64,000 nucleotides of DNA from Phycisphaerales bacterium (GTDB lineage Bacteria > Planctomycetota > Phycisphaerae > Phycisphaerales > UBA1924): contig JBGAND010000020.1 in assembly GCA_044222485.1 (NCBI GenBank), positions 17,907 through 81,906 of the forward strand, in the 5' to 3' direction. The translations under genes and the position numbers were made by a program. Of this stretch, positions 39,277-64,000 are shown piece after piece. How positions within the stretch are numbered: the stretch's first letter is position 1; every line of letters starts with the position of its first letter. The notes beneath the pieces are model-generated. The model was given only the letters and a program-made list of their open reading frames with translations, was not told the DNA's origin and did not search any database.

Positions 39277-39286
39277 TGGACGACCC

Positions 39287-39973: not shown

Positions 39974-39997
39974 CTCTGCGTCCTCTGCGCCTCTGCG
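39974..39997. repeat. three copies of CTCTGCG at 9/8-nt spacing in the coxC-coxD spacer
   Basis: Read directly: ctctgcg tc ctctgcg c ctctgcg. Confidence 0.85.
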
Positions 39998-40017
39998 GTG
40001 AATCTCGGATCTGAACC

Positions 40018-44831: not shown

Positions 44832-44934
44832 TCGGGGCCGAAGGGCCAGCGCGATTCAGCCGATAACCAGTGCGGCCTGCATCGCGGTTCCTACTACCTA
44901 TATTTGCCTCCCAGCACCCATCGGAGTTTTTGAG

Positions 44935-46419: not shown

Positions 46420-46825
46420 GCCAGGTCCGAAGGATATTGTGCGGCTTCATCGAGAGGCGTTCTGTCAGGCTTTCTTGATCCCTCGGGTTCGTGACCGCAA
46501 GATGCTCAAACCCGATGAGCTGGCTGACGAGTTCTATCACAACTTACCTTCGATGTTGAGAGCAAATCGCCGCGTTGCGCTGACACCGCCTGTGCTCACC
46601 TCGAATCTGATCCGGCTAATTCAGAAGCTATCCAAGGAGACCAAAGCGGTCTACCTCGGTCACTCGATGGATGAATGGCCGTGTGAACTGGCCGAGGTTG
46701 TGGATGCGATTTCGCGCGACCACGGCGCGGTGGCATCGATTGAAGCGGGGACGCTGGCGATCTATGCGACCGAGGGATGTCCACGGCCGGATTGGTACTT
46801 GCTGTGCAGCGACCCGGGATGTTGA
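46403..46825 (+). CDS. hypothetical protein with atypical codon usage
   Basis: The ORF starts at TTG 46403 (overlapping the icd end) or, more likely, at ATG 46502 (MLKPDELADEF). It uses TTA, AGA, AAT, CTA and ATT codons that are rare elsewhere in the window. I recognise no domain. Confidence 0.45.
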   Translation: MPKGSEPGPKDIVRLHREAFCQAFLIPRVRDRKMLKPDELADEFYHNLPSMLRANRRVALTPPVLTSNLIRLIQKLSKETKAVYLGHSMDEWPCELAEVVDAISRDHGAVASIEAGTLAIYATEGCPRPDWYLLCSDPGC

Positions 46826-46874
46826 AGCAGGGGCAGGCCATTTGGCGGGGGTTTCAAAGGGGACATTGACGGTC

Positions 46875-47201
46875 ATGGTTCAGTTACTGGTGTTCTTCGC
46901 GTTTCTTGTCGCGGTTGTGGTACTGAATCGCGCTTGGGTTCGGTTTCGCGTGGTCTCCATCATCAGGGTGTGGGCCAAAGAGCAGGGCTTTGAGTTGGTT
47001 TCTGCGCAGTTGCGAGGCTTGAGGCAGGGGCCGTTTCTTATGCAAGGTGGCCGTAGCGATACGGTGCATCGCATTGTCGTCCGGGAGCGTTCGGGCGGTA
47101 CCCGGGCTGGGTGGGTCCTTTGTCGTAACGGAGTGTTTGCGATGATTCACGATCGCGAGCTGGTCGTGAAATGGGATCACGAATCGAGCGGCTCGGCTTG
47201 A
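46875..47201 (+). CDS. small membrane-anchored hypothetical protein, 108 aa
   Basis: ATG 46875 gives MVQLLVFFAFLVAVVVLNRAW (a TM segment), then a soluble domain. The upstream part of track ORF 46671..47201 overlaps the preceding ORF. Confidence 0.5.
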   Translation: MVQLLVFFAFLVAVVVLNRAWVRFRVVSIIRVWAKEQGFELVSAQLRGLRQGPFLMQGGRSDTVHRIVVRERSGGTRAGWVLCRNGVFAMIHDRELVVKWDHESSGSA

Positions 47202-47787
47202 TACCGGTGCGTGGGGTGGACGGTCCGCTCGCTGCGCTCGGGGCTCGAAGGGGAACGGCCTTGGTGCAAGTGGACGCGATGGGTGCGCGGCACTGCTGCG
47301 CCGCGGCGTGGTGTGTGTGAGCGTGGGATGTTCGTGCGGCGAGCAGTGGCACCTCCGGATGCTGAGTACTTGGTTCATCTGACTTCCGCTCGTGCGTGGG
47401 CCGGTTGGCTGCCTGCGCAGTTGGGCCTTGGGGGCTTGAGCTGCGCCGAGATCGGGCGGTCCACGTCGATGCGACCGAGGGTGAGTTCGCTTTCGTGAAC
47501 TCACTTGCGGTAGAGGTTCGCCCAAACTTCTCCGGAATATGAAGCGTCGGAGCCAACACGGGGTTTCCGCCCCGAATCCGCGGCCTCATCAATCCGGGGT
47601 TGCTTGAGCAGCCCCTCTACCTATGGGCCAAAGACACGTTTTGCGCGCAAAAACTGTGTCGAAAACGGAGGCGGTTCTTCAGAAAGTGCTTGAAATAGGG
47701 CGCGGATTTGATGTGTGGATTTCGCAGAAATCGTGTCGTGCCCGAGCACTTTCGTGCGCACAAATCGTGTCCAAACGCCGGGAGAGG

Positions 47788-47826
47788 TTGGGCGACCCAT
47801 CGTGGCGACACGCCACGGCTCGCTGA
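47788..47826 (-). repeat. REP-like palindromic element, copy C
   Basis: The plus strand reads GTTGGGCGACCCATCGTGGCGACACGCCACGGCTCGCTGAAG. Its reverse complement matches copy A (GAGCGAGCCGTGGCGTGTCGCCACGATGG-TCGCC). It lies 9 nt downstream of the rpiA stop, in the same orientation relative to transcription as copy A. Confidence 0.8.
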
Positions 47827-47834
47827 AGCGGGGC

Positions 47835-48527
47835 TTAGTCTTGGCGGCGGATCATCTTCTCGATGCCGCGGGGGGTGTCTACGAGGATCTCGTCGGCTTC
47901 ATCCAGGAAGATGCCGTGGTCGATGACTCCGGCGACATCGTTGAGTTCGCAGGCGAGTTCGGCGGGGTCGCGGTCTTCGAGTTGGACATCGATGATGAGG
48001 CTGCCGTTGTCGGTGAGGAAGAGGTGGCCGTCGAGCGTGCGGCGGACGACCCCGTGGAGGGCGATGTCACGCAGGCGAGCCCGGACGCTGGCCAGGCCGA
48101 AGGCCAGGACGGCGATGGATAGGGTGATGCGCTGGCCGAGGCGATCGACGAGCTTGGATTCGTCGACGATGTAGACGCGTTTGCCCGAGGCTCGGGCGAC
48201 CATGCGCTCGCGGACGATGGCGCCGCCGGCGCCCTTGATCATGCGCATCTGGGGATCGACTTCGTCCGCGCCGTCGAAGAGATAGTCGATGTGCTCGAGC
48301 ATGGCGAAGTCCACGAGCTCGAGTTGTTGGGAGCGGGCGAGGGTTTCGGTGGCGTGGCTGGTGGGCACGCACTTGATCTTGAGGTTTTCGTTGCGAACAC
48401 GTTCAGCGAGGGCCAGGACGCCGCGGGAGGCGGTCCTGCCGGTGCCAAGGCCGACGATCATCCCTGACTGGATTTCGGCGACGGCCGCCTCGGCCAACGC
48501 GTCCGCAACTTTCGGCTCGCTACTCAA
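47835..48527 (-). CDS. rpiA: ribose-5-phosphate isomerase A
   Basis: GMIVGLGTGRTAS, FDGADEVD, KGAGGAIVRE. I propose a TTG start at 48527 (LSSEPKVADALAEAAVAEIQSG), overlapping the upstream ALDH stop by 8 nt. The only in-frame ATG downstream of the ALDH stop (MIVGLGTG) would remove the conserved N-terminus, and the track's own start at 48674 lies inside the ALDH gene. Confidence 0.85.
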   Translation of the reverse strand: MSSEPKVADALAEAAVAEIQSGMIVGLGTGRTASRGVLALAERVRNENLKIKCVPTSHATETLARSQQLELVDFAMLEHIDYLFDGADEVDPQMRMIKGAGGAIVRERMVARASGKRVYIVDESKLVDRLGQRITLSIAVLAFGLASVRARLRDIALHGVVRRTLDGHLFLTDNGSLIIDVQLEDRDPAELACELNDVAGVIDHGIFLDEADEILVDTPRGIEKMIRRQD

Positions 48528-50034
48528 AGCGGATCCCCTGTGCAAGCTTGAACTCTCTTCCGTAATTGATCGTGCACGACTGACGCCGCATGTACGCCTT
48601 CCAGGAGTCGCTGCCCGACTCGCGGCCGCCCCCTGTATCTTTCTCACCTCCGAAGGCTCCGCCAATCTCGGCACCGGAGGTTCCCAGATTTACGTAGGCC
48701 AGGCCGCAATCGCTGCCGGCGGGGCTGATGAACTTCTGACCTTCGCGGAGGTCGTTGGTGAAGATGGCAGAGGCTAGGCCTTGATCAACGCCGTTGTGCA
48801 TGGCGAGGGCTTGATCGAGGGTTTTGTAGGTGAAGATGTAGAGGATGGGGGCGAAGGTTTCTTCGGAGGCGATTGGAAGGGTGTTGTTCGCAGGGGCGCG
48901 GATGATGGTGGGCTGGACGTAGTGGCCCTTGCCGGCGCCTTGGTGGCGGTCGCCACCGACGAGGACCTTGCCGCCTTGTTGCTTGGCGGTGGCGATGGCG
49001 CCGAGGAAGCCTTCGACGGCGCGGGCGTTGATGAGCGGGCCGACGAGGGTGCCCTCGGCGAGGGGGTCGCCGATGCGGACGGTCTTGTAAGCCGCGACGA
49101 GCTTGGTGATGAAGGCATCCGCGATGGACTCGTGGATGATGAGGCGGCGGGTGGTGGTGCAGCGCTGGCCGGCGGTGCCGACGGCGCCGAAGACGACGCT
49201 CTTCAAGGCCAGATCGAGGTCGGCGGATTCGGAGACGATCAAGCCGTTGTTGCCGCCGAGTTCGAGGAGTGCGCGGCCGAGGCGCTCGGCGACGACCTGT
49301 CCGACGGCGCGGCCCATGCGGCAGGAGCCGGTGGCGGAGATCAGGGGGATGCGGCGGTCGGCGACGAGTTTCTTTCCGATGACGTCATCGTTTCCGATGA
49401 GGAGGCGGAAGATGCCGGGGTGGCCCATGGAGGCCGCGACCTTCTCGCAGATGTCGTTGGTGGCGATGGCCGTGAGGGGGGCCATGAGGCTGGGCTTCCA
49501 GATCGTCACATCGCCGCACACCGCGGCCAACATGGCGTTCCAGCCCCAGACGGCGTTGGGGAAGTTGAAGGCGGTGATGACGCCGACCAGGCCGAGCGGG
49601 TGCCAGTTTTCATACATGGCGTGGTCGGGGCGTTCGCTGGAGAGGACAGGGCCGCCGAGGTTGCGGGAGAGGCCGACGGCGTAGTCGGCGATGTCGATGG
49701 TTTCCTGGACTTCGCCGAGGCCTTCGGCACGGATCTTGCCGACTTCGAGGGAGACCAGCTCGCCCAGGGCTTCTTTGTTTTTGCGGAGTTCATCGCCGAT
49801 GGCGCGGACGACTTGGCCGCGGACCGGGGCGGGGACCAGGCGCCATTTCTTGAAGGTTTCGGCGGCTTCGGAGATGGTTTTTTCGTAGGCCGCGGCATCG
49901 TCGAGGCGGATGCCGGCGATGGGTTCGCCGGTGGCGGGGTTTTCGCTGATGGCGAGGTTGGCGTCGGCAGCGCGGGCGCTGAGGATGACGCGTGGGTGCT
50001 TGGTGAGTCCGGCTCTCTCGAGGATTCCCTGCAT
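48520..50034 (-). CDS. aldehyde dehydrogenase, ALDH7/piperideine-6-carboxylate (alpha-aminoadipic semialdehyde) dehydrogenase-like
   Basis: ATG 50034 gives MQGILERAG. LELGGNN, catalytic GTAGQRCTT, and the tail GAFGGEKDTGGGRESGSDSWKAYMRRQSCTINY are characteristic of the ALDH7 group. Confidence 0.85.
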   Translation of the reverse strand: MQGILERAGLTKHPRVILSARAADANLAISENPATGEPIAGIRLDDAAAYEKTISEAAETFKKWRLVPAPVRGQVVRAIGDELRKNKEALGELVSLEVGKIRAEGLGEVQETIDIADYAVGLSRNLGGPVLSSERPDHAMYENWHPLGLVGVITAFNFPNAVWGWNAMLAAVCGDVTIWKPSLMAPLTAIATNDICEKVAASMGHPGIFRLLIGNDDVIGKKLVADRRIPLISATGSCRMGRAVGQVVAERLGRALLELGGNNGLIVSESADLDLALKSVVFGAVGTAGQRCTTTRRLIIHESIADAFITKLVAAYKTVRIGDPLAEGTLVGPLINARAVEGFLGAIATAKQQGGKVLVGGDRHQGAGKGHYVQPTIIRAPANNTLPIASEETFAPILYIFTYKTLDQALAMHNGVDQGLASAIFTNDLREGQKFISPAGSDCGLAYVNLGTSGAEIGGAFGGEKDTGGGRESGSDSWKAYMRRQSCTINYGREFKLAQGIRFE

Positions 50035-50141
50035 AGAGAGAACTCTAGCGCGGCACGAGAACCAAAGGCACACTGGCCATGCGGAGCATGACCAGAGCCA
50101 CCAAAGCGGAAGCGATGGATCGATTGACTCCCTCCCCCCAA

Positions 50142-52342: not shown

Positions 52343-53743
52343 ATGACCGTCGCGTCGCTTCGTGATTCGGCAGTGGGTGCGGTTCTGAAAGTCTTGTGTG
52401 CGATGCTGCTGGTGGTCCCGGTGGCCCGGGCACAGGTGCAGCCAGTCACGGCCTACTTCGCGGTTGTCTCAGCGGATGAGGCACCACTTCGTAGCGGCGA
52501 GGGAGACCTTCTCTATCCCGTCGCCAAGCTGGCGAAGGGTACGCTGCTCAGGGTCGATGGGCAGGGCAAGGGGTATCTGCGGGTGGCCTACCCGGCGGGG
52601 ACCTCGTGCTTTGTGCCGGCGGACTCGGTGCAGGTGGATGGCAAGTCGGCAACGATTACCAAGGCGACGCGGCTGAAGGCTCTCAACATGACCACTGGCT
52701 TCAAGGGAAGCTGGAAGGATGTCTTGGAGCAGCCCCTGAACCCCGGGGCGAAGTTGACGTTGGCCGAAGCGGAGCCGGTGAACGATGGGCGCGGGAACGC
52801 GGCGTATCGCGTGGTGCCGATCGAGCAGGCCCGGGCGTACGTCCAGGAGAGCGCGGTCGTTAAGGCGACGCAGGAGCAGATCAACGACTACATGGCGAAG
52901 GCGCCATCCAAGGCGGGTGACAAGCCAGAGACACAAGCAACCAAGCCGCCGGAGAAGCCCAAGACGGGTGACAAGCCAGCCACGGAGAAGCCCGCGGATG
53001 ACGGAACGAACATCGCGCAGCCCAAGGTGACCCCGAAGGAGGGCGACAAGCCGGCGGAGACCACTCAGGCGAACAAGCCCGAGGTGAAGCAGCCGGAGGC
53101 TCCCAAGAATCCTTACGAGAAGCTGGAGTTGGCGTTTGATTCGGTTCGCAAGCAGCCGGTGGAAAGCGCGGAGTTCACAGCGCTGATGGGAGAGTTCCAG
53201 GCCGCGATCGATGGGTTGAAGGATGAGCCACTGAATGCGTCGGCCAAGCGTCGGCTGACGCAGCGGCGGGACTATCTGAAGTTGCAGATCGATATCCAGG
53301 CCAAGCAGCGGGAGATCGCCGAGGCCGCGCAGAATCTCAATGTTGATGAGCAGAAGCTGGCCGCGCGGATGAAGGATGTCGAGAAGACGCGGCAATACAC
53401 GATTGTGGGGCGGCTCTCGGCGAGCACGATTTATGATGGCAAGCGGTTGCCGCTGATGTTCCGGATCATGGCGATCGGCGGCCAGTCGTCGCGGACGCTG
53501 GCGTACCTGAAGCCTGACGAGAAGATGAAAGTTGAGAACAAGCTTGGGCAGGTGGTGGGGATCGTGGGCGAGTCGCGCCTGGACCCGACGCTCAAGAGCA
53601 ACGTGATCACGCCGATTCGGGTGGACACGCTGGAGGCGGCCCCTGCGACGCCGCCGACACCCGCGCCGGCTCCGGCTACGGAGCCCGCGCCTCCTGAGAC
53701 CAAGCCGTCGGCCGAAGTGCCCGCGACAGGGCCGGGACGCTGA
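52343..53743 (+). CDS. secreted protein with SH3-like N- and C-terminal domains, a Lys/Pro/Glu-rich linker and a coiled coil
   Basis: AAGGAG at 52330-52335 precedes ATG 52343. Signal peptide MTVASLRDSAVGAVLKVLCAMLLVVPVARAQ. It has a low-complexity region KPETQATKPPEKPKTGDKPATEKP. Confidence 0.65.
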   Translation: MTVASLRDSAVGAVLKVLCAMLLVVPVARAQVQPVTAYFAVVSADEAPLRSGEGDLLYPVAKLAKGTLLRVDGQGKGYLRVAYPAGTSCFVPADSVQVDGKSATITKATRLKALNMTTGFKGSWKDVLEQPLNPGAKLTLAEAEPVNDGRGNAAYRVVPIEQARAYVQESAVVKATQEQINDYMAKAPSKAGDKPETQATKPPEKPKTGDKPATEKPADDGTNIAQPKVTPKEGDKPAETTQANKPEVKQPEAPKNPYEKLELAFDSVRKQPVESAEFTALMGEFQAAIDGLKDEPLNASAKRRLTQRRDYLKLQIDIQAKQREIAEAAQNLNVDEQKLAARMKDVEKTRQYTIVGRLSASTIYDGKRLPLMFRIMAIGGQSSRTLAYLKPDEKMKVENKLGQVVGIVGESRLDPTLKSNVITPIRVDTLEAAPATPPTPAPAPATEPAPPETKPSAEVPATGPGR

Positions 53744-53765
53744 TCAGGATTGAGTGAAGTTCAAG

Positions 53766-53800
53766 CGGCCCACCTTTCTGGGGTGGGTCGCTGTGTTTTT
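53766..53800 (+). terminator. intrinsic terminator
   Basis: Stem CGGCCCACC / GGTGGGTCG with a 7-nt loop, followed by CTGTGTTTTT, 23 nt after the stop at 53743. Confidence 0.7.
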
Positions 53801-53889
53801 GGGGTTGATTGGGGGATTGGCGGGGGCGGCGCGGGCGGTGGCGCGGTATCGTCATCTTGAGGCCGCGGGTGTGGCCGGGAGGCGTGTGC

Positions 53890-56718
53890 ATGCGCTTGAG
53901 CGGAACGGTTGTGGCGTGGTTGGCGGTGATGGCGGGGGGCTGTGGGCCATCGAGCGAGCCCAGCGCGAAGAAGGCGCCGGCCGCAAGTGCGCCGGCGGTG
54001 GCTGCTGCCAAACCCGAGGGTGAGCAGGTCAAGCCGGAGGAGGATGCCAAGGCGGTGCCTGCGGGGCCGAAGGGGTGGTTGGCGGTGTATTCGACCCCGG
54101 AGGGGGCCGATGGTCAGTCGATCCGTACCTGGAGCCCCGGCGCGGCGTTCATGCTGAGTGAGGGGCAGACGATTCATCCGGCGGTGCCCGCGTCGGGATT
54201 GGTTGCGTCGTACACGGGGGATGTGGAGATTGAGCAGCCGGGGCGGTATCGGTTCAGCGCGCAGATGCAGGGTGGGGTGGCGACGCTGGCGGTGACCAAG
54301 GGTGGGGCGTCGGTGGGGCAGGGGGCGTTGACGTCGGACCAGAGCATGGTCCGGACGGCGTGGTTGAGCCTGGGTGCGGGCCCGGTGCAGTTGTCGGTGA
54401 GCATGTCGCGGAACGGGTCGGGAGCGACGCGGCTGAGAACGATGTGGGAGAAAGAGGGGGTGGGCGAAGCCGGATTTCGAGAGGAGCCGCTGCCGCCGAG
54501 CGCGGTGAGGGTGGTGAAGTACGGGATCAAGGATGCGGAGACGGGGCAGAGTTCGCTGCGCGGGCGGGTGCTGCTGGGAGAGCTCAACTGCGTGGCGTGT
54601 CATAGTGCGGATGCGGGGTCGGTGACGCCGCGGCCTGCGCCGCTGATGGGGGAGATTGCACGCCGGGCATCTGCGGAGTGGTTGACCAAGTGGGTGCGGG
54701 ACCCGCAAGGCATGAAGCCTGGGTGCGGGATGCCGACGGTGTTTGCGGATGAGGACAAGGATCAGGTTGACGCAATTGTGCACTACCTGATGAGCCTGGG
54801 AAGCACGCCGGAGTGGCAAGCGCCGGCGACGGAGGCGGACGGGCTGGAACAGGGCAAGAAGCTGTATCACACGCTGGGGTGTGTGGCGTGCCATGGGGTG
54901 CTGGACAACCCGGCGAAGATTTTCGGCGATGCGGGCGCGCCGGCGACGGCTGCGGCGACGATTTCGACGCCGAGTGCGCCGTTTGGGAAGATGTCTAAGA
55001 AGTGGAGGGCCGCGGGGCTTTCGGAGTTCTTGAAGGACCCGTTGCGGACGCACCCGGGCGGGCGGATGCCATCGATGGCACTGACCGCGCTGGAGGCTGA
55101 CTTGGTCGCGACGTACTTGGTGAACAACTGGGATGCGGGCGGGTTCAAGCCGGCGGAGTTCAAGTCGGACCCGGCAAAGGTGGAGATCGGGAAGGCGGCG
55201 TTTGCCAGCCGCGGGTGTGCGTCGTGCCATCAGACGGGGCATCAGTTGCCGGATGTGGCTTCGACGCTGACGGCAAAGCCGTTGAACGAGTTGAAGGTGG
55301 GTGCGGGGTGCATGGATCCGGCGAGTACGACGACGCCGCGGTACACGCTGAGTGATGGGGATCGAGCGGACTTGGCGGCGGGGATGGCGGAGGTGAAGCG
55401 AGTCACGGGTCCGGCGGGGCCGGCGCCGATTGATGTGGGGCAGCGGACGATTCTGGCGTTGTCGTGTCGGAACTGTCATCAGTACAACGAGACGGGCGGG
55501 TTGCCGGATGATTTGAAGACGTGTTTCCGCACGGCGGATGAGACGGAGCTTGGGGATGAGGGGCGTTTTCCGCCGCGGCTTACGGGTGTGGGGATGAAGC
55601 TCAACACGCCGTGGATCAAGCAGGTGTTGACGGAGGCGGCGCGTGCGCGGCCGTATATGGCGACGCGGATGCCGCAGTTTGGGAGCAAGATTGTCGGTGA
55701 GCTGCCAGCTGCGCTGGCTCAGACGGATGGAGTTGCGCCCGATAGCGACTTGCACGCGGCTCCCGTGAACGACACGCAGGTGGTGGCGGGGCGGACGTTG
55801 GTGGGCGAGAAGGGGATGAACTGCATTTCGTGCCATGTGTTTGGCGGCAAGGCGGCGGGGACGCGCGGACCCGAGATCACGAAGTTTGCCGAGCGGATTC
55901 GGTATGAGTGGTGGCGGGTGTACCTGATGGCGCCGGGGCGGTTCAAACCGGGGACGCGCATGTCGGCGTTTTATGCGACGCCGGATGGGAAGGGGAGCGT
56001 GAAGGATGTGCTGGGTGGGGACCCGGATCGGCAGAGTGAGGCGCTGTGGTCGTACTTCGTCACCAGCAATGGTGCGATGCCGCCGGAGGGGTTGCCGAGT
56101 GCGGGTGGATTGCCGCTGGTGGTGGGGGACAGGCCGGTGGTGTTCCGGACGTTCTTGAAGGATGCGGGGAGCCGCGGCATTGCGGTGGGGTATCCGATTG
56201 GGGTTCACTTTGGATTTGACGCGACGGGTGTGAGGCTCGTGAGCGCGTGGAAGGGCGAGTTCATTGATGCGACCAACGTTTGGAAGGGGCGCGGCGGGAG
56301 CGAGGCAACGGGGCAGGGGGCGACGATCTGGAAGGCGCCGGCGGGGCCGTCACTGGTGATCGGCGTGAAGCCCGCGGCCTGGCCGGAGAAGGCGACGCGG
56401 GAGGCGGGGTACCGGTTCCAAGGGTATCGACTGGATAACAAGGGGATGCCGACGTTCCTTTACAAGGTGGGAACATCGGATGTGGAGGAGCGGTTTGAGC
56501 CGGGCGAGAACGGGCAGATCAAGAGGACGTTCACGATCGCGAATGTTCCGACGGGCGCGATCGTGTGGTTCAACGCTGGGCCGGGATTGGTGAGCAGCAC
56601 GGTGCTGGCGAATATTTCGGAGGACCGGGCCGCGGGAGATGGGAAAGTGAAGCTGGAGGCGTACACGCCTAAGGATGCGAGCCAGCCGGTGTCGTTTTCT
56701 GTGGTGATCAAGCCATGA
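53890..56718 (+). CDS. multi-domain c-type cytochrome lipoprotein (five CxxCH) with PA14-like N-terminal domain
   Basis: ATG 53890 gives MRLSGTVVAWLAVMAGGCG (a lipobox). CxxCH motifs are CVACH (twice), CASCH, CRNCH and CISCH. The N-terminal block YTGDVEIEQPGRYRFSAQMQGGVATLAV is PA14-like. Confidence 0.8.
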   Translation: MRLSGTVVAWLAVMAGGCGPSSEPSAKKAPAASAPAVAAAKPEGEQVKPEEDAKAVPAGPKGWLAVYSTPEGADGQSIRTWSPGAAFMLSEGQTIHPAVPASGLVASYTGDVEIEQPGRYRFSAQMQGGVATLAVTKGGASVGQGALTSDQSMVRTAWLSLGAGPVQLSVSMSRNGSGATRLRTMWEKEGVGEAGFREEPLPPSAVRVVKYGIKDAETGQSSLRGRVLLGELNCVACHSADAGSVTPRPAPLMGEIARRASAEWLTKWVRDPQGMKPGCGMPTVFADEDKDQVDAIVHYLMSLGSTPEWQAPATEADGLEQGKKLYHTLGCVACHGVLDNPAKIFGDAGAPATAAATISTPSAPFGKMSKKWRAAGLSEFLKDPLRTHPGGRMPSMALTALEADLVATYLVNNWDAGGFKPAEFKSDPAKVEIGKAAFASRGCASCHQTGHQLPDVASTLTAKPLNELKVGAGCMDPASTTTPRYTLSDGDRADLAAGMAEVKRVTGPAGPAPIDVGQRTILALSCRNCHQYNETGGLPDDLKTCFRTADETELGDEGRFPPRLTGVGMKLNTPWIKQVLTEAARARPYMATRMPQFGSKIVGELPAALAQTDGVAPDSDLHAAPVNDTQVVAGRTLVGEKGMNCISCHVFGGKAAGTRGPEITKFAERIRYEWWRVYLMAPGRFKPGTRMSAFYATPDGKGSVKDVLGGDPDRQSEALWSYFVTSNGAMPPEGLPSAGGLPLVVGDRPVVFRTFLKDAGSRGIAVGYPIGVHFGFDATGVRLVSAWKGEFIDATNVWKGRGGSEATGQGATIWKAPAGPSLVIGVKPAAWPEKATREAGYRFQGYRLDNKGMPTFLYKVGTSDVEERFEPGENGQIKRTFTIANVPTGAIVWFNAGPGLVSSTVLANISEDRAAGDGKVKLEAYTPKDASQPVSFSVVIKP

Positions 56719-58874
56719 TGCGGCGAGGCGTCATTGTGTGGGGTGCGTTGGCGGCATTCGGAGCCGCGGCGGCGCAGGCCCAGGTGCTGATCGCAGGGAA
56801 GCCGTATCAGAAGCTGGAGACGCGGGGGCAGACGCGTGATGCGTTGATGAAGCAGTTGACAGGTGTGAGCGCGGATTGGGGTGCGTGGAACTTGCTGGCG
56901 CCGCTGGATCATCCGCAAGGTGCGAAGAACATCGATGCGAAGTTTCCCGTTGAGGACCAACTGGGGAAGATGAAGGTGGGTGGTGCGGGGCCGGACTTGC
57001 GTTCGGAGTACGTGGGCAAGGGTGGAAAGCAGCTTGCGTGGAAGACGGTGGATGTGTCGAACGCGATCGGTGGGAACGGGGGCGCGGGGCCGGTGAATTT
57101 GGCCGCGGGATTGGCGAAGGAGGAGTCGGGGAACGCGATGGGGTACCTGTATCGAGCGATCGCTGCGGATCGGGATATGGAGATGCCGGTGGTGATCGGG
57201 GCGGATGATGGGTTGCGGCTGTGGCTCAACGGCGAACTGCTGGTGGATGAGAACAAAGAGCAGGCGCTGGACCCGCAGGCGTATCGGCGGGTGCTGAAAC
57301 TCAAGAAGGGTGTGAACCACCTGCTGGTGAAGGTGAGCCAGGGGAATGGGGAGTGGCAGTTTCAGATGGCGCAGGAACTGGAGCTGGACCCGATCGCGGA
57401 TGCGGCGCTTGAGTATCAGCTTGATCAGGACTTTCCGGATGCGGAGTCCAAGTACTACAAGCTGGTGACGATCGCGGCCCCAAAGGGTGTGAGCCTGGAG
57501 GTTGGGGGAATCGACCTCTTGCCGTCGGGCGATCCGATCGTGTGCACGCGGCGGGGGGATGTGTACGTGGTGCGCGGGGCGTATGGGATTCCGGCGCTCT
57601 CTGCGAAGTTTGAGCTGTTTGCGTCGGGGTTGCAGGAGCCGCTGGGGCTGTCGGTGCGACCGGGAGATGCGGGCGGCACGGATGTGTACATGGCTCAGCG
57701 GAGTGAGCTGACGCTATTGAGAGATACGGATGGCGACGGCCGCGCGGATGTGTTCAAGACGGTGTGCGACGCGTGGCAGATCTCGGGGAACTATCACGAG
57801 TACGCGTTCGGGCCGAAGTTCGATCGCGACGGGTTTGCGCGGGTGAACCTGAACCTGGCGCACACGGGTGGCGAGACGGTGATGGGGACGAAGATCCCGA
57901 CGCGTGGCTGCACCGTCAAGGTCGATGTGAAGTCGGGGGAGATGACGATTGTTGGGGATGGGCTGCGGTCACCGGATGGGATCGGCATGAACGCGGCTGG
58001 CGATGTGTTTTACACAGACAACCAGGGGGATTACGTCGCGACCAACAAGCTGTGCCATGTGAAGCAGGGGGCATTCTTTGGACACCAGGCGAGTTTGAAG
58101 TATCGCGAGGGTTGGGAGAATTGGAAGAAGGATGGCAAGGCGGTGCCGGAGATTACGGTGCCGGCGGTGTGGTTTCCGTATAAGAAGATGGGGCAGAGTG
58201 CGTCGGACATCGTGTTCGATAATTCGCAGTGGAAGTTCGGTCCCTTTAGCGGACAGGCGTTCGTTGGAGATCAGACCACTGCCGAGATCTTCCGTGTGTT
58301 CTTGGAGCAGGTGACGGATGCATCGGGGCGGACGGAGTATCAGGGGGCGTGTTTCCCGTTCCGGCGCGGGCTGGCGTCGGGCGTGCATCGGATGGTGTTT
58401 AACCGGCCGCCGGAGTTGTCCGGAGAGTTGGCCCCGGCTTCGCTCTTTGTGGGACTGACGGATCGCGGGTGGGGCTCGACGGGACCCAAGCGTGAGGGGT
58501 TGCAGCGGCTGATGTGGACCGGGCAAGTGCCGTTTGAGATTCAGGAAATGAAGGTAAGACCGGATGGGTTTGAGCTGGTGTACACGCTGGAAGTGGGGGA
58601 AGAGGCATTGCAGGCCGCGGCGTATCGGATGACGAGCTATACGTATGAGTATCACCCGGACTACGGCTCGGATGAGAAAGACACGGCCGAGGTGAAGATC
58701 ACGAGTGTGGAGCGGACGGGGGCCAACTCGGTGAGGCTTCATGTGGAGAAGTTACGGACGGGGCCAATGGGATACGTGCACGAGCTGCACGCGAGCGGGG
58801 TGAAGGCGGCGGGCGGCGAGGCGTTGCTGCACGATGTGGCGTATTACACGATTCAGCGGGTGCCGGTGAAGTAG
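56715..58874 (+). CDS. exported PA14-domain plus beta-propeller (dehydrogenase-like) protein, paralog 1
   Basis: Signal peptide MMRRGVIVWGALAAFGAAAAQAQ. PA14-like IGADDGLRLWLNGELLVDE. Propeller-like FASGLQEPLGLSV...LLRDTDGDGRADVF...SGNYHEYAFGPKFDRDG...DGLRSPDGIGMNAAGDVFYTDNQGDY. ATGA overlap with the cytochrome gene. Confidence 0.8.
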   Translation: MMRRGVIVWGALAAFGAAAAQAQVLIAGKPYQKLETRGQTRDALMKQLTGVSADWGAWNLLAPLDHPQGAKNIDAKFPVEDQLGKMKVGGAGPDLRSEYVGKGGKQLAWKTVDVSNAIGGNGGAGPVNLAAGLAKEESGNAMGYLYRAIAADRDMEMPVVIGADDGLRLWLNGELLVDENKEQALDPQAYRRVLKLKKGVNHLLVKVSQGNGEWQFQMAQELELDPIADAALEYQLDQDFPDAESKYYKLVTIAAPKGVSLEVGGIDLLPSGDPIVCTRRGDVYVVRGAYGIPALSAKFELFASGLQEPLGLSVRPGDAGGTDVYMAQRSELTLLRDTDGDGRADVFKTVCDAWQISGNYHEYAFGPKFDRDGFARVNLNLAHTGGETVMGTKIPTRGCTVKVDVKSGEMTIVGDGLRSPDGIGMNAAGDVFYTDNQGDYVATNKLCHVKQGAFFGHQASLKYREGWENWKKDGKAVPEITVPAVWFPYKKMGQSASDIVFDNSQWKFGPFSGQAFVGDQTTAEIFRVFLEQVTDASGRTEYQGACFPFRRGLASGVHRMVFNRPPELSGELAPASLFVGLTDRGWGSTGPKREGLQRLMWTGQVPFEIQEMKVRPDGFELVYTLEVGEEALQAAAYRMTSYTYEYHPDYGSDEKDTAEVKITSVERTGANSVRLHVEKLRTGPMGYVHELHASGVKAAGGEALLHDVAYYTIQRVPVK

Positions 58875-58884
58875 GGGATCGCAG

Positions 58885-61047
58885 ATGAACGGACGCATGG
58901 TGGGTGTGGTCGCGGCGATGCTGGGCGTGTGCGCGGCGGCGGTTGCCCAGGGGCCCGAGACGATCAAGGTCGGCAAGGTTGAGTACAAGAAGCTCGGCTC
59001 GCGCGAGGCGACTGAGAAGCGGATGATGCAGCTCTTGAACCCGTCGCCGGCGCACTGGGGCGATTGGTACATGCTGACACCGTTCCCGTACGACCCCAAG
59101 GGTCCCAAGCTGGCGGATGCGGCGCCGCCGGAGGCGGAGCTTGTGAAGATGAAGGCGGGCGGGCCCGGGCCGGACTTGAAGAAGGAATACGTCGGCAAGA
59201 AGAACACGCCGGTGGTATGGCGGCCAGTGGGCGATATCTCTAATCGCGTCATCGACTTCAAGATTTTCGACGACAAGGAGCTGGGGGATTACTGCGCCGG
59301 GTATCTCTACGGCACCGTCGAGTGTGAGAAGGCGATGACGGTGGATGTGACGATGGGTTCAGATGACGGGCTGCGGTTCTGGCTCAATGGCAGGCTGCTG
59401 GTGGATAAGGATGTGCCGCGGGGTCTGGATGCGGAGGAGGACAAGGTTCGGCTGGATTTTCAACAGGGTGTGAACCACATCCTGCTGAAGGTGTCGCAGA
59501 TCAAGGGCGGGTACGAGTACCAGATCAACAGCAAGGTGCCGATGGATGGGTTTCTGGAGACGCAGCTTCAGTACTTGCTGGATCGGGACTTTCCGCGCGC
59601 TTCGGAGGATCGATACTACAGGGCGTTGACGATCGCGACGCCGCCGGAGGTCGTGCTGGAAGTGGGGGGCATGGATGTGCTGCCGCCCAATGAGAAGGGT
59701 GAGTGCCTGCCGATCGTGTGTACGCGGCGGGGGGATGTGTTCATTGTCGAGGGGGCGTACGACGATCCGCCGTTTGGTGCGAAGTTCAAGAAGTTTGCCT
59801 CGGGATTGCACGAGCCGCTGGGGTTGGCGGTGCGCGTTGAGAATGGCGTGACCGCGGTGTATTGCACGCAGCGCGGCGAGATCACGCGGATGACGGATAC
59901 GAACGGGGATGGTGTCGCGGATAGGTACAGCACGTTCGCGGATGGATGGGGCGTGTCGGGCAACTATCACGAGTTCGCGTTCGGGCCGAAGTTCGATCGC
60001 GAGGGCAACGCGTGGGTGACGCTGAACGTGGGGTTCTGCGATGCGCTGGGCAAGTCGATCGTGCCGTACCGGGGATGGTCGCTGAGGTTCTCGCCGGATG
60101 GGAAGATGACGCCCGTGAGCGATGGGCTGCGGTCACCCAATGGGATGGGAGAGTTCACGGATGGTGCGATGTTCTACCTGGACAACCAGGGGGATTACGT
60201 CGGCACGAATCGGATGACGCAGCTTGTGCCGGGGTCGTTCGCGGGGCATCCGGCGACTTTGGGTTGGCGATCAAACTGGAAGAAGGGTGATCCGATGCCG
60301 CCCATTCAGCCCGCATCGGTCTGGTTCCCGTATAAGAAGATGGGGCAGTCGGTGGCGGACTTCCTGCTGTATGACACGGCGGGGAATCAGGCTTCGGCGA
60401 GCGTTAACGCGGCCTTGAAGGCGGAGAAGTTCGGGCCGTTTGCGGGCCAGGTTTTCTGCGGCGATCAGACGTTGTGCATGGTGAACCGAGTGTGTCTGGA
60501 GAAAGTGGACGGCCACTATCAGGGTGCCTGCATCCCGTTCCGTTGGAACCTGGACTGCGGTGTGAACCGTCTGTGCTGGGCGGGCGACGGATCCATGTTC
60601 GTTGGCCAGACCGATCGCGGGTGGGGTTCCACAGGTCGCCTGCGGCAGGGTCTGCAGCGGATTGTGTGGACAGGTCAGACCCCGTTTGAACTGCTGACCA
60701 TGAAGATCACGGATGACGGGTTTCTGTTGAACTTCACCGAAGACGTCGATGCCGCGGCCGCGGGAAGCCCGGATTCATATGCCATGGTCAGCTACACGTA
60801 CGAGCACCACCCCGAATACGGCTCTGACGAAATGGACAAGGCGAGGCAAAAGATCGCGGCGGTTGATGTGGTGGATGCCCGGACGGTGAAACTGCACGTG
60901 GACAAACTGCGTGGCGGGGGGATGGGGTACGTCCACGAGTTGGCGCTGCCGGGTGTGAAAAACGCCAAGGGAAACACCCTGCTTCACCCCGTGGCGTACT
61001 ACACGGTGCAGAAGATTCCCGGCCGGGCGGCCGCCAACGCGAACTAA
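58885..61047 (+). CDS. exported PA14-domain plus beta-propeller (dehydrogenase-like) protein, paralog 2
   Basis: Colinear with paralog 1: MGSDDGLRFWLNGRLLVDK, FASGLHEPLGLAV, MTDTNGDGVADRY, SGNYHEFAFGPKFDREG, DGLRSPNGMGEFTDGAMFYLDNQGDY. Confidence 0.8.
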   Translation: MNGRMVGVVAAMLGVCAAAVAQGPETIKVGKVEYKKLGSREATEKRMMQLLNPSPAHWGDWYMLTPFPYDPKGPKLADAAPPEAELVKMKAGGPGPDLKKEYVGKKNTPVVWRPVGDISNRVIDFKIFDDKELGDYCAGYLYGTVECEKAMTVDVTMGSDDGLRFWLNGRLLVDKDVPRGLDAEEDKVRLDFQQGVNHILLKVSQIKGGYEYQINSKVPMDGFLETQLQYLLDRDFPRASEDRYYRALTIATPPEVVLEVGGMDVLPPNEKGECLPIVCTRRGDVFIVEGAYDDPPFGAKFKKFASGLHEPLGLAVRVENGVTAVYCTQRGEITRMTDTNGDGVADRYSTFADGWGVSGNYHEFAFGPKFDREGNAWVTLNVGFCDALGKSIVPYRGWSLRFSPDGKMTPVSDGLRSPNGMGEFTDGAMFYLDNQGDYVGTNRMTQLVPGSFAGHPATLGWRSNWKKGDPMPPIQPASVWFPYKKMGQSVADFLLYDTAGNQASASVNAALKAEKFGPFAGQVFCGDQTLCMVNRVCLEKVDGHYQGACIPFRWNLDCGVNRLCWAGDGSMFVGQTDRGWGSTGRLRQGLQRIVWTGQTPFELLTMKITDDGFLLNFTEDVDAAAAGSPDSYAMVSYTYEHHPEYGSDEMDKARQKIAAVDVVDARTVKLHVDKLRGGGMGYVHELALPGVKNAKGNTLLHPVAYYTVQKIPGRAAANAN

Positions 61048-61144
61048 CTGATGGGTGGGGCTGAATAGGTATTGCTCTGAGAGCAGTTGTTGCTATCTTG
61101 GAAGCGTCGTGCGCCCAGCGAGCGTCGGCACAGGGAGCTTGAAC

Positions 61145-62857
61145 ATGAAACTGAATCGAGTTGTGGCGGCGGCCGCGGTTGCGGCGCTGGCGGGTACGGC
61201 GTTTGGACAGACGGACCTGGTGACCAATGGTGATTTTGAGACCGGGAGTTTTTCCGGTTGGACGCAGTTTGGAGACCTCCAGTACACGGCCGTGCAGACG
61301 GCTACCCGGCACAGCGGGACGTACGGAGGGCAGTTTGGCCCGGTGATTCTGGGCGGCGGCGGCATCACCCAGACGATCGCGGCGACGGCGGGTCAGCAGG
61401 TTTTGGTGAGCTTCTGGTATCAGGCGCAGGTTGGGGGAACGGCAAACAACTCGTTTGACTGCACGTTTGACGGCGTGTCGCTGGTGAACTACGTCAACGA
61501 CACCACGCACACGGCGTGGACTGAGCACAACTTTCTGGTGACAGTCGCCAACAACAACCCGGCCCTGCAGTTCACATTCCTCAACGTGCCGTCATACGAC
61601 TATCTGGACGATGTGCATGTGTACTCGGACGGGTTCGGCTCGTGCTGCCTGGGGGATGGGACGTGCACGGTGAAGACCGCGGCGGGCTGCACGGCGGCCG
61701 CGGGCACGTACGCGGGCAACGGCTCTTCGTGCGCGACGACGGTGTGCCACACCGGCGCGTGCTGTCTGGCGGATGGCTCGTGTGTGGTGACCGGGGCGGG
61801 CGGTTGCCAAGCTCGGAACGGAATCTACCGGGGTGACGACACGAGTTGCGGCTCGGCCAACTGTGTGCCGCAGACGTTTGTGTCTGTGGGGCTGAACTGG
61901 AACTTCAACGGGATGGTGCACGGGTCGGCCGAGCAGGGACAGGCCAACCACGACAATCCCAACGGGTACCGGTCGGTTGCGGATCGCGGGCTGCTGCTTG
62001 ATGGGGCCGCGGGCGCGATCAACGCGGGGCCGATCGTGGATGCGGACTTCATGCCGTTCACGCTGGTGTCGCAGTCGGGCGTGCTGGACATCGTGCACTT
62101 GGGTGACCGGCAGTACGTGGCCAACAGTGCGCGGGCCTGGGGCACGGGGACAGAGAACGGCCTGCAGCCGACGTGGCTGCCTGTGTCGAACCAGGAAGGG
62201 CCGCAGGTCAGCAACGTGCTGGCCATGAACGCGACGTTTACGCCGCAGGCGAGCCTGGGTGTGCTGTATCAGATTTCTGACTCCGGCGGTCGGTTTGACA
62301 TGGTGCTGACGTTTGCCGACAGCTCGACAGCGACGGTCACGCTTCGGGCTCCGGATTGGTACGGTGACCAGAGCCCGCCCGCTCCTGCCGTTGGCTCAGG
62401 CCTGGCGGCGCAGCGGAAGTTGGGTGTGTACACCGGGACCGGTCAGACGGACCTGGCCAATGCGAACAACCCGCTGAACGTGACCGAAGCGGTGGTGAAT
62501 GTGAACAGCCTGCAGGCCGCGGGGCTGGGGAACTTTGCGGGTAAGAAGCTCGCGTCGATCACGTTCCAAAACCCGGTGTCGAACGCCAACTACGCGAACT
62601 CGACACCGGCGAACGGGTCGGGGATTGCGATCATCGCGGCGAGCCTGGGCGGCGTGACCACGTCCGCCGCGTGCTACGCCAACTGCGACGGGAGCACATC
62701 CAACCCGCTGCTGACGGCCAATGACTTCCAGTGTTTCCTGAACTTCTACGCCGCAGCCAACCCGATCGCCAACTGCGACGGCAGCACGGGGAATCCGCTG
62801 TTGACGGCCAACGATTTCCAGTGCTTCTTGAACAAGTACGCGATTGGGTGCTCGTGA
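61145..62857 (+). CDS. secreted protein: CBM-like jelly-roll N-domain, two Cys-rich repeats, unknown middle domain, C-terminal dockerin-like module
   Basis: ATG 61145 gives MKLNRVVAAAAVAALAGTAFGQ (a signal peptide). LVTNGDFETGSFSGWTQFG is typical of CBM4/9-like modules. Cys-rich repeats at 61643-61864. The tail ends ...ANCDGSTGNPLLTANDFQCFLNKYAIGCS. Confidence 0.8.
   Translation: MKLNRVVAAAAVAALAGTAFGQTDLVTNGDFETGSFSGWTQFGDLQYTAVQTATRHSGTYGGQFGPVILGGGGITQTIAATAGQQVLVSFWYQAQVGGTANNSFDCTFDGVSLVNYVNDTTHTAWTEHNFLVTVANNNPALQFTFLNVPSYDYLDDVHVYSDGFGSCCLGDGTCTVKTAAGCTAAAGTYAGNGSSCATTVCHTGACCLADGSCVVTGAGGCQARNGIYRGDDTSCGSANCVPQTFVSVGLNWNFNGMVHGSAEQGQANHDNPNGYRSVADRGLLLDGAAGAINAGPIVDADFMPFTLVSQSGVLDIVHLGDRQYVANSARAWGTGTENGLQPTWLPVSNQEGPQVSNVLAMNATFTPQASLGVLYQISDSGGRFDMVLTFADSSTATVTLRAPDWYGDQSPPAPAVGSGLAAQRKLGVYTGTGQTDLANANNPLNVTEAVVNVNSLQAAGLGNFAGKKLASITFQNPVSNANYANSTPANGSGIAIIAASLGGVTTSAACYANCDGSTSNPLLTANDFQCFLNFYAAANPIANCDGSTGNPLLTANDFQCFLNKYAIGCS
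62672..62854 (+). repeat. dockerin-like tandem module, copy 2 of 3
   Basis: CYANCDGSTSNPLLTANDFQCFLNFYAAANPIANCDGSTGNPLLTANDFQCFLNKYAIGCS. Confidence 0.85.
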
Positions 62858-62861
62858 TGGA

Positions 62862-63896
62862 GTGACCGTGCAGACCAAGCTCCGAGAATTCGCATCATTG
62901 GCGGCAGGCCTTTTCGCGGCGGCAGGGGCGTGTTTGGCCCAACCCGCGGGTCCGATCGTGGGCTTTGGCGAAAACACATGGGGCCAACTGAATATCCCGC
63001 CGGGTAACTTCGTCGCCGTGACGGGGACTGCGGGTACCGTCGTCGGGATCCGCGCCGACCGGACATTGCAGGCTTGGGGAGCGGCCACCCCGCCGGAGCT
63101 CAACGTCCCTTCCGGGACTTTCAAGGCCATCGATGGCGGGGCCAATCACTACCTGGGAATTCGGACCGATGGCACCCTGGTCGGCTGGGGATACAACTTT
63201 TTCGGCGAGGCTTCCGTCCCACCGGGTACCTTCATAAAGGTGTCAGCGGGGAACAAGCACGGCGTGGGAGTGCGCACCGACGGATCGATCGCCTATTGGG
63301 GGCTCTCGTACGGCGGCACGATCCCGACGGGGAACGACTTTGTCGATGTGGCCGCGGGGCTGGAGTTCAGCGCTGCGCTTCATGCCAACGGCACGATCGA
63401 GGTGTGGGGCTCCGGTTCGCCCGGTGTCCCGGCCGGCGGCCCGTTCGTGCAGATTGGTGCGGGACATGTGTTCCTAGCTGGGCTTGGTGTCGATGGCATT
63501 GTCAGGATGATTGGGAATGGGCCAGCGCTGGGAAATTTGGCGTCAACCCCTGTGGTGACGATGGCAACGATGGAGTTTGCGATCCTAGCTCTCAAGCCGA
63601 ACGGCGAGCTTACGGGCGATTCGTCGACGGTGACGATAGTGCCTGCAGGCACCTTTGTGGCGATCGGATTGAATGCTGGGGATAGCAATTTTGCTATCTC
63701 TGGCAGGCCCTGTTACGCGAATTGCGATGGTAACACAAATTCGCCTCTACTTACCGCGAATGATTTTCAGTGCTTCCTCAATGCGTTTGCTTCTTCGTTG
63801 GCAATTGCAAACTGCGACAACAGCACGGTTTCGCCGGTTCTGACCGCGAATGATTTTCAGTGCTTCTTGGACAAGTACGCGATTGGGTGCTCGTAA
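62862..63896 (+). CDS. secreted RCC1-like repeat (beta-propeller) protein with C-terminal dockerin-like module
   Basis: GTG 62862 lies 4 nt after the previous stop and gives (M)TVQTKLREFASLAAGLFAAAGACLAQP (a signal peptide). Repeats such as GGANHYLGIRTDGTLVGWGYNFFGEASVPPGTF. The tail ends ...ANCDNSTVSPVLTANDFQCFLDKYAIGCS. Confidence 0.8.
   Translation: MTVQTKLREFASLAAGLFAAAGACLAQPAGPIVGFGENTWGQLNIPPGNFVAVTGTAGTVVGIRADRTLQAWGAATPPELNVPSGTFKAIDGGANHYLGIRTDGTLVGWGYNFFGEASVPPGTFIKVSAGNKHGVGVRTDGSIAYWGLSYGGTIPTGNDFVDVAAGLEFSAALHANGTIEVWGSGSPGVPAGGPFVQIGAGHVFLAGLGVDGIVRMIGNGPALGNLASTPVVTMATMEFAILALKPNGELTGDSSTVTIVPAGTFVAIGLNAGDSNFAISGRPCYANCDGNTNSPLLTANDFQCFLNAFASSLAIANCDNSTVSPVLTANDFQCFLDKYAIGCS
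63711..63893 (+). repeat. dockerin-like tandem module, copy 3 of 3
   Basis: CYANCDGNTNSPLLTANDFQCFLNAFASSLAIANCDNSTVSPVLTANDFQCFLDKYAIGCS. The last ~25 nt (aagtacgcgattgggtgctcgt) are identical to the end of the preceding gene. Confidence 0.85.
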
Positions 63897-63930
63897 TCGG
63901 CAAATGAGTTTTCGATAACCTGAAACCGCG

Positions 63931-63959
63931 CCCGCGACTCGCATGTCGCGGGTGTTTTT
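63931..63959 (+). terminator. intrinsic terminator
   Basis: CCCGCGAC-TCGCAT-GTCGCGGG followed by TGTTTTT, 35 nt after the stop at 63896. Confidence 0.8.
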
Positions 63960-64000
63960 CATTGCCAAGGAAGGCCCGGGGCCTACACTGGCTTGATGCA

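Follow-up and report, generated by a model that had tools for sequence, protein, structure and literature searches.

What brings a five-haem cytochrome c, two propeller proteins and two dockerin-tailed proteins together in one run of genes, and do the five products act as a unit? The question is raised by a block of about 10 kb in a 64-kb stretch of DNA from a Phycisphaerales bacterium (contig JBGAND010000020.1 of assembly GCA_044222485.1). This stretch is referred to as the window, and coordinates are window positions unless a related locus is named. The five genes are called G1 (cytochrome), G2 and G3 (PA14-propeller paralogues), G4 and G5 (dockerin-tailed proteins). A sequence-only reading of the same DNA had described a 10-kb five-gene unit and had suggested that its products assemble into one complex of the cell envelope. 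The block exists as described, but the conserved unit within it is the cytochrome together with the propeller, and G4 and G5 are local. The five-gene composition is a local accident of gene order. G1-G2-G3 is a widely conserved, uncharacterised and autonomous cassette, with cytochrome and propeller as its core, and it is probably, as judged from sequence comparison and structural models, a periplasmic sugar or glycoside oxidoreductase that feeds the respiratory chain.

Planctomycetota and their relatives carry many uncharacterised haem and propeller proteins of the so-called PVC type. The split, translationally coupled cytochrome-propeller pair represents a very stable two-gene module in a family of thousands of proteins, and its fusions to ThuA and 3-keto-disaccharide-hydrolase domains provide a testable hypothesis, namely periplasmic glycan or glycoside oxidation coupled directly to cytochrome c oxidase. 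If true, the oxidative (non-Koshland) routes of glycan breakdown would gain a new type of enzyme, and the Pfam families DUF7133 and DUF6797 a function. G4 and G5 are a different matter, of much narrower scope.

Conservation of the cytochrome-propeller pair

Homologues of G2 are abundant, with 2,809 found at E <= 1e-5 in a word-index search and, in a profile search of cluster representatives, 13,644 at E <= 1e-3. The 1,671 clusters (50% identity) retained at E <= 1e-30 are considered as the family. Gene context was analysed by tblastn with all five proteins in 78 genome loci and several metagenome loci, which gave 82 non-redundant loci (numbered with the prefix L). Of the 82 loci, 69 encode a G1-like multi-haem cytochrome immediately before a G2/G3-like propeller, which makes 69 of the 71 that have enough flanking sequence. 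In 11 of the 13 loci without an upstream cytochrome the contig ends within 1.3 kb on that side, and only from two (L024, L033) is the gene truly absent. The pair is seen in Phycisphaerae, other Planctomycetota, Acidobacteriota, Hydrogenedentota and Verrucomicrobiota; its PA14 parts are missing in Acidobacteriota, Hydrogenedentota and Chthoniobacterales. In every relative with gene calls, the cytochrome and propeller genes overlap, start on stop, by 4 or 1 nucleotides (nt), and in the window the ATG of G2 overlaps the stop codon of G1 (ATGA).

Tandem propellers, the G2-type followed by the G3-type, occur in 10 Phycisphaerae loci. Outside these the propeller is single and usually of the G3-type. 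The two propeller types are divided between loci in one metagenome-assembled genome (MAG; JBFWWU01), in which a cytochrome and a G2-type propeller are found at L013 and a lone G3-type propeller, downstream of ExbB/ExbD and without cytochrome, at L033.

Joint gain or loss of PA14 on cytochrome and propeller was considered as a further sign of association and was not counted as evidence. In seven loci the propeller has no PA14 (six are labelled Acidobacteriota, Hydrogenedentota, Chthoniobacterales or Rubripirellula, and one is a truncated Planctomycetota contig), and there neither PA14 domain is detectable; tblastn, though, misses the N-terminal domain of the cytochrome also in several Planctomycetota loci in which the propeller does have PA14.

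The penta-haem cytochrome

G1 is assigned to Pfam Cytochrom_C (PF00034) with 99.2 bits against a cut-off of 21.3. Its five CxxCH motifs are all invariant in 30 homologues, and so are four Met-Pro motifs. The AlphaFold2 (AF2) model of G1, having a predicted local distance difference test score (pLDDT) of 85, starts with the signal/lipobox segment and a disordered tether (residues 1-52). The N-terminus, MRLSGTVVAWLAVMAGGC, includes by eye the lipobox-like MAGGC, and G1 is a probable lipoprotein tethered to the membrane. There follows a PA14 fold (about 60-208), for which Foldseek returns Epa1A, MpAFP and RsgI (E 3.5e-5 and weaker); distant G1 homologues bear Pfam PA14. The helical class-I cytochrome c region with the five CxxCH motifs extends from about 210 to 725, and its fifth haem domain (residues 633-682) shows a weak resemblance to TIGR02603 (23.8 bits, cut-off 68). 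The protein is completed by a beta-sandwich (about 750-940) that scores 22 bits with DUF6797, under the cut-off of 24.9. Searched with full-length G1, Foldseek gave PA14 matches only, leaving the haem region and the DUF6797-like domain unmatched. No similarity was detected by BLASTP between the PA14 domains of G1 and G2, nor between their C-terminal beta-sandwiches.

Fold and active site of the propeller proteins

G2 and G3 share 47% identity over the full length. The model of G2 (pLDDT 87) shows a PA14-like domain (about 25-225), a six-bladed beta-propeller (about 245-600) and a C-terminal beta-sandwich (about 605-719). Both proteins exceed the gathering cut-off of 27 for Pfam DUF7133 (PF23500; 31.3 bits for G2, 41.6 bits for G3) with partial coverage of the profile (positions 75-212 and 75-307, respectively, of 385), and both are under the cut-off of 122.2 for TIGR02604 (50.1 and 26.9 bits). 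Neither protein sequence contains a CxxCH motif; the haem domains sit on G1. The PA14 domain of G2 scores 20.6-23.0 bits with PF07691, slightly under the cut-off of 24, and the G2-family profile matches the PA14 domain of RsgI3 (E 7e-5). Combined with the PA14 fold of G1, this means that all three core proteins carry PA14.

According to the model, the fold of G2 is clearly that of the soluble glucose dehydrogenase (sGDH) type, known from enzymes that use pyrroloquinoline quinone (PQQ). The best Foldseek matches of the G2 propeller in the PDB have E-values of 4e-13 to 4e-9 and TMt of 0.54-0.74; they are a fungal AA12 enzyme (6jt5) and the PQQ sugar dehydrogenases 3a9g, 2ism, 3das, 7cdy and 1cq1. 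Propellers of the SMP30, lactonase and paraoxonase kinds are returned as well. Profile comparison by hhalign between the family alignment, restricted to its propeller, and an alignment of five sGDH members (YliI, 7cdy, 2ism, 3a9g, 3das) gave 91% probability at E 1.3e-7, and the comparison with YliI alone was uninformative (0.5% probability). Weak matches to PA14 aside, a search of the PDB with the G2 sequence found only NHL propellers of the designed 'Pizza' kind, and the G2-family profile reached PA14 and nothing else there.

The general base in the active site of Acinetobacter calcoaceticus sGDH is His144, in an H-x-G-G-R motif, and the PQQ and Ca residues are cited here in the numbering of that enzyme. 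The equivalents of Arg228, Gln246, Gly247 and Arg406 are retained in G2 as R418, Q437, G438 and R559, none of which varies among 30 sequences. D439, H457 and C546 are further invariant residues of the propeller. The propeller may use PQQ as its cofactor, or perhaps does not.

Association with 3-keto-sugar enzymes

The immediate neighbours of the cassette are highly variable across loci. Upstream, the commonest families are 3keto-disac_hyd (7 of 63 loci) and ThuA (6 of 63), and taken together 7 of the 63 have a free-standing ThuA/DUF1080 gene directly before the cassette. Downstream they are FIST (6 of 71), DNA ligase (4 of 71) and GFO (3 of 71), of which the FIST and DNA ligase adjacencies look like lineage synteny. 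The open reading frame of the propeller is itself extended, by 125-478 residues, in 17 loci. All 10 of the C-terminal extensions tested contain ThuA, followed in nine by a 3-keto-disaccharide-hydrolase domain; two further extension fusions are backed by tblastn, and database homologues show the same fusion. The propeller type fused to ThuA and DUF1080 is the G3-type, and the relatives that bear the fusion are mostly labelled only Planctomycetota. Fusions and adjacent genes together tie the cassette to 3-keto-sugar enzymes in at least 19 of the 82 loci.

A Phycisphaeraceae MAG offers the most complete context of 3-keto-glycoside type observed around the cassette (L006, positions 2813-12112 of that locus), with the xylose-isomerase-like AP_endonuc_2, GFO_IDH_MocA, DUF1080 with ThuA, cytochrome and propeller in one co-directional run. 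BT2157, which belongs to DUF1080, has been proven to hydrolyse 3-keto-disaccharides; the periplasmic 3-ketoglycoside dehydrogenases ThuAB and LacABC are described as dependent on cytochrome c (PMC8121099; PMC9007349). Literature searches returned nothing on DUF7133 and nothing that joins ThuA, Planctomycetes and cytochrome c.

Proposed function and its alternatives

The best reading of G1-G3 is that of a split, PA14-decorated variant both of the PVC-type haem dehydrogenases and of sGDH-like propellers with an adjacent cytochrome c. To proceed as proposed, the propeller would oxidise a sugar or glycoside in the periplasm. The product would perhaps be a 3-keto-glycoside, a proposal made because fusion to ThuA and 3-keto-disaccharide-hydrolase domains is frequent among orthologues of the propeller. 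The five haems of G1 would then relay the electrons to the caa3 oxidase, encoded 16 kb upstream, and the acceptor there would be the cytochrome c domain that its CoxII bears according to Pfam. G1 is translationally coupled to one or two exported proteins of PA14-propeller-sandwich architecture, the two 47%-identical propellers of the window would represent two substrate specificities served by one cytochrome, and the PA14 domains on G1, G2 and G3 would hold the proteins on glycan. The joint proposition, that G1-G3 are a sugar- or glycoside-oxidising cassette feeding caa3 and that G4 and G5 are a separate, lineage-only insertion, has in our estimate an even chance of being correct.

Several observations weigh against this reading. 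The catalytic His144 of sGDH aligns to Ala364 of G2; an invariant His361-Glu362 pair precedes this position by 3 and 2 residues, in a region where the alignment is of low confidence. Asn229 is replaced by S419, Gln231 by Asn or Asp and Pro248 by D439, and Glu253 and Arg408 are not conserved. Pfam GSDH (PF07995) gave no match for G2 or G3 at E <= 0.01, a precomputed match being found for one homologue (P0065). The 64-kb window contains no ThuA, DUF1080 or GFO gene, and no terminator separates G3 from G4. The enzyme activity of the propeller family is a prediction from sequence and models, and the signal peptides, the lipobox and the direction of electron flow are likewise predicted. Lastly, a comparable cytochrome-linked propeller from Teredinibacter neither bound PQQ nor oxidised glucose (PMC10916295), and Lac161_ORF7, the one TIGR02604 protein that has been assayed, was reported to hydrolyse lactose rather than to act as a dehydrogenase (bioRxiv 10.1101/047167).

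Much of this would suit an alternative in which the propeller is not a redox enzyme but a glycan-binding or a hydrolytic or lyase module (lactonase-like, or the reported 'novel beta-galactosidase'). The cytochrome would then feed electrons to the propeller, or else to an oxidative partner of it, in support of polysaccharide chemistry that is reductive or oxygen-activating. Its model are the Cbp2D/E-type cytochromes, proposed to feed lytic polysaccharide monooxygenases (LPMOs), and an LPMO can be reduced by a C-type cytochrome domain (PMC8981238). The partial retention of the catalytic and Ca residues of sGDH, together with the SMP30, lactonase and paraoxonase propellers among the Foldseek matches, is in line with the idea, as are the pf08450-X173 propeller of Teredinibacter, which lacks PQQ binding and glucose dehydrogenase activity (PMC10916295), and the hydrolysis of lactose (Km 1.8 mM) by Lac161_ORF7, which combines TIGR02604, HEAT and cytochrome c parts (bioRxiv 10.1101/047167). 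Structural comparison argues otherwise, with PQQ dehydrogenases as top matches, several orders of E-value ahead of the lactonases. A five-haem wire coupled to the propeller in 69 of 71 loci fits with an enzyme that oxidises its substrate and supplies respiration with the electrons. Genes for LPMOs or oxygenases do not recur among the immediate neighbours, and the propeller is fused to domains of an oxidative (3-keto) pathway, ThuA and DUF1080. A non-redox propeller is therefore considered unlikely, albeit the best of the alternatives.

Less likely still, the cassette might oxidise a substrate other than carbohydrate (an alcohol, an aldehyde, a metal or another small molecule), with PA14 as a mere anchor in the envelope. 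The active-site residues are indeed unlike those of the sugar-specific sGDH, and about three quarters of the loci have no adjacent sugar gene. Against it stand the fusion or adjacency of ThuA/DUF1080 in at least 19 loci and the GFO or TIM-barrel genes in several; furthermore, PA14 domains solved so far bind sugars, and the characterised six-bladed enzymes of the sGDH fold all act on sugars. Sugar or glycoside oxidation thus remains the preferred function for G1-G3.

Boundaries of the block and the dockerin-tailed genes

The features of the block and its surroundings are summarised in the table.

Features of the G1-G5 block and of the DNA around it (window positions)
Feature	Position	Strand	Description
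tRNA-Leu(gag)	20043-20128		directly followed by the G5 paralogue
G5 paralogue	20251-21354	+	367 aa, RCC1 repeats, full-length
Dockerin tail of G5 paralogue	21169-21351		dockerin_GC 39.2 bits
ACIII-caa3 cluster	25887-40773		respiratory chain genes (Pfam)
Sugar-metabolism genes	42561-43709	+	central sugar metabolism
Sugar-metabolism genes	44758-50073		central sugar metabolism
Upstream gene	52343-53743	+	no Pfam match
5' hairpin + T-run	53764..53802	+	hairpin 53764-53792, 13 bp stem (8 GC pairs), then GTGTTTTTGG
G1	53890..56718	+	penta-haem c-type cytochrome, 942 aa
G2	56715..58874	+	exported PA14 + propeller protein, 719 aa
G3	58885..61047	+	G2 paralogue, same architecture, 720 aa
G3-G4 spacer	61048..61144	+	97 nt
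G4	61145..62857	+	exported dockerin-tailed protein, 570 aa
G5	62862..63896	+	exported RCC1-repeat propeller, dockerin tail, 344 aa
3' hairpin + T-run	63928..63960	+	hairpin 63928-63955, 11 bp stem, then TTTTTCATT

As far as its outline is concerned, the sequence-only reading is borne out. Two hairpins with T-runs bracket the five same-strand genes. Folded as RNA, they reach -23.8 kcal/mol (5', z-score -4.2) and -25.4 kcal/mol (3', z-score -5.2), and in neither case was any of 200 shuffles equally stable. Terminator-like motifs as such are not in excess in the region (7 observed, 7.2 expected from shuffles), and the bracketing hairpins are distinguished from the others by the length and stability of their stems. 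The 5' hairpin is a probable intrinsic terminator of the upstream gene, setting the 5' boundary of the unit, and the 3' hairpin a probable one after G5. With the starts chosen here, for G4 and G5 the first start codon ahead of a signal-like hydrophobic stretch, the junctions G1/G2, G2/G3, G3/G4 and G4/G5 measure -4, 10, 97 and 4 nt, the same values as before. Gene calls in near-identical strains place G4 likewise 97 nt past G3 and give the gap before G5 as 4 nt (one call) or 10 nt (two calls). No cytoplasmic gene is interleaved among G1-G5. Signal peptides and lipobox were assessed by eye. Besides the lipobox-like start of G1, signal-like N-termini are apparent in G2 (...AAAAQA/Q), G3 (...AAVA/QG), G4 (...GTAFG/Q) and G5 (...AAGACLA/QP), in agreement with the earlier claim that all five products are exported.

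The earlier domain calls (c-type cytochrome, PA14 with a TIGR02604/DUF7133-like propeller, GC-type dockerin tails, RCC1) are matched by hidden Markov models, profiles and Foldseek. The placement of the haem module on a separate protein agrees with the missing CxxCH of G2 and G3 and the weakly TIGR02603-like fifth haem domain of G1, and Pfam places the alternative complex III (ACIII)-caa3 chain upstream as stated. The PA14 domain of G1, the conserved unit of cytochrome and propeller and the recurrent link to ThuA and 3-keto-disaccharide hydrolase go beyond that reading.

The spacer between G3 and G4 contains no terminator-like hairpin, and its structure is not significant (z-score +1.2). No sigma-70-like site turned up ahead of either G1 or G4 in a promoter scan, and an Rfam search of the window found a tRNA only. 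G4 and G5 may be co-transcribed with the cassette in this species; since no terminator lies between G3 and G4, their co-expression and functional recruitment here are possible.

G4 comprises an N-terminal jelly-roll, two Cys-rich repeats, a region of about 250 residues of no assigned kind and a dockerin tail (residues 510-570). Its N-terminus scores 18.5 bits with the carbohydrate-binding module (CBM) family CBM_4_9 (PF02018, cut-off 25.9) and 29.9 bits with NTTRR-F1 (cut-off 70). G5 combines RCC1 repeats with a GC-type dockerin tail (residues 284-344). With the model dockerin_GC (NCBIfam NF041540, cut-off 29 bits) the two tails score 32.0 (G4) and 26.8 bits (G5, slightly under the cut-off), and they are 77% identical over 61 residues. 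Without its tail, G4 has 39 homologues in 5.8 billion sequences, three of them full length. The G5 paralogue of the window is 39% identical to G5 and 41 kb away from it, directly behind the tRNA-Leu(gag) and beside unrelated genes. The window, 64 kb long, encodes three dockerin_GC proteins, members of what is here a dispersed family.

The order G2-G3-G4-G5-FIST is found in three near-identical strains (L087-L089; G4 98% identical). Divergence of the neighbours is uneven, in that G4 of the window is 98% identical to theirs and the adjoining G5 only 82%. In two of the six loci with FIST as immediate downstream neighbour (L002, L004) FIST comes directly after the propellers; because it follows G5 in the near-identical strains, G4-G5 look like an insertion. 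A G4 orthologue of 61% identity occurs between genes for an S41 peptidase and a 2-phosphosulfolactate phosphatase, with cassette and G5 absent there. None of the 82 related loci has a dockerin, CBM or RCC1 gene beside the cassette, and dockerin tails occur twice in them, both more than 7 kb from it. GC skew drops across G4-G5. G1-G3 have no dockerin-like tail; no search aimed at cohesin-like partners was made. Based on these comparisons, G4 and G5 appear to be a species- or lineage-specific insertion outside the conserved cassette.

The least probable alternative is the complex first suggested for the block, in which G1-G5 would join via dockerin-like tails in one glycan-binding/oxidising assembly of the envelope: it has in its favour the common strand, strong terminators at both ends only and none at G3/G4, the apparent export of all five products, the weakly CBM-like N-terminus of G4 and the G2-G3-G4-G5 order shared by the three strains, but G4 and G5 are not co-conserved with the cassette, being absent from beside it in all 82 related loci, the 61% orthologue of G4 lives in an unrelated context without G5, the RCC1-dockerin paralogue of G5 lies 41 kb off among unrelated genes, G4 and G5 fill a position between propeller and FIST that is empty in relatives, the GC skew falls across them, and G1-G3 lack the tail.

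Wider surroundings of the block

The gene upstream of the 5' hairpin encodes a conserved protein with a signal peptide, in which a beta domain at the N-terminus and a C-terminal half of coiled-coil type are joined by a linker rich in Pro, Lys and Glu. Homologues of it (36-59% identity) are encoded upstream of the cytochrome in Phycisphaerales only (L002, L004, L010, L014-L016, L027, L037, L039). Considered as a member of the cassette, the gene was rejected and judged to represent lineage synteny, because the synteny is confined to close Phycisphaerales relatives and a terminator precedes G1. Between the oxidase cluster and the cassette are genes of central sugar metabolism, namely prokaryotic ketohexokinase, isocitrate dehydrogenase, ribose-5-phosphate isomerase A and aldehyde dehydrogenase. 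The GC skew of the + strand switches sign: it is about -0.15 over 24-40 kb and +0.2 to +0.3 over 44-60 kb, and its cumulative minimum falls near 40-44 kb. The positive stretch spans genes of both strands, so the switch is not a simple coding-strand effect; it could be a replication-related switch or an assembly join.

Comparison with known systems

The earlier remark that no characterised system of this composition is known needs qualification, for comparable combinations of carbohydrate binding, propeller and cytochrome have already been described (PMC10916295; bioRxiv 10.64898/2026.07.10.737718). Found in the same phyla are the PVC-type haem CxxCH proteins (TIGR02604 propeller with TIGR02603 haem part; DUF7133), which share the homologous propeller and a c-haem partner. 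Unlike in these, the haem part of the cassette is a separate five-haem lipoprotein of 942 residues with its own PA14 and DUF6797-like domains, and the propeller of G2/G3 has an N-terminal PA14, lacks CxxCH and is under the TIGR02604 cut-off.

The six-bladed PQQ sugar dehydrogenases (sGDH, Asd/YliI, AA12) have the same propeller fold and a gene-adjacent cytochrome c. Propellers of this kind are commonly encoded beside periplasmic cytochromes c, which are proposed to carry the electrons to a terminal oxidase (bioRxiv 10.64898/2026.07.10.737718). Their partner is a mono- or di-haem cytochrome, whereas it is a penta-haem PA14 lipoprotein here; moreover, the PQQ/metal signature of G2/G3 is partial, and PA14 and C-terminal domains are added. 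The CcPDH of Coprinopsis cinerea (AA8 cytochrome b, AA12 PQQ propeller and CBM1) similarly brings together a carbohydrate-binding module, an sGDH-fold propeller and a cytochrome (PMC4332668, PMC5960967), yet it is fungal, a single polypeptide with one haem b, has CBM1 rather than PA14, and its PQQ dependence is proven. For this kind of enzyme, PDB entry 6jt5 ranks with the top fold matches of G2. Exported combinations of CBM, c-type cytochrome and sGDH-like propeller are found also in TERTU_3803/2913 of Teredinibacter turnerae and in Cbp2D/E of Cellvibrio (PMC10916295; PMC8981238). These differ in being single multidomain proteins of Gammaproteobacteria with other cytochrome (X183/X132) and CBM families, the propeller being shown not to bind PQQ.

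A bolder proposal, which we consider improbable, would make the cassette a third, propeller-based type of cytochrome c-linked periplasmic glycoside dehydrogenase after LacABC and ThuAB, with a non-canonical active site and perhaps a non-canonical cofactor, feeding a 3-keto-glycoside pathway and respiration in Planctomycetota and several further phyla. There exists a likeness to LacABC and ThuAB in the cytochrome c-linked periplasmic oxidation of glycosides in company with DUF1080 and ThuA (PMC9007349; PMC8121099), and the difference lies in the catalyst, for the dehydrogenases of both systems are flavin adenine dinucleotide (GMC) or Gfo/Idh/MocA enzymes and not propellers.

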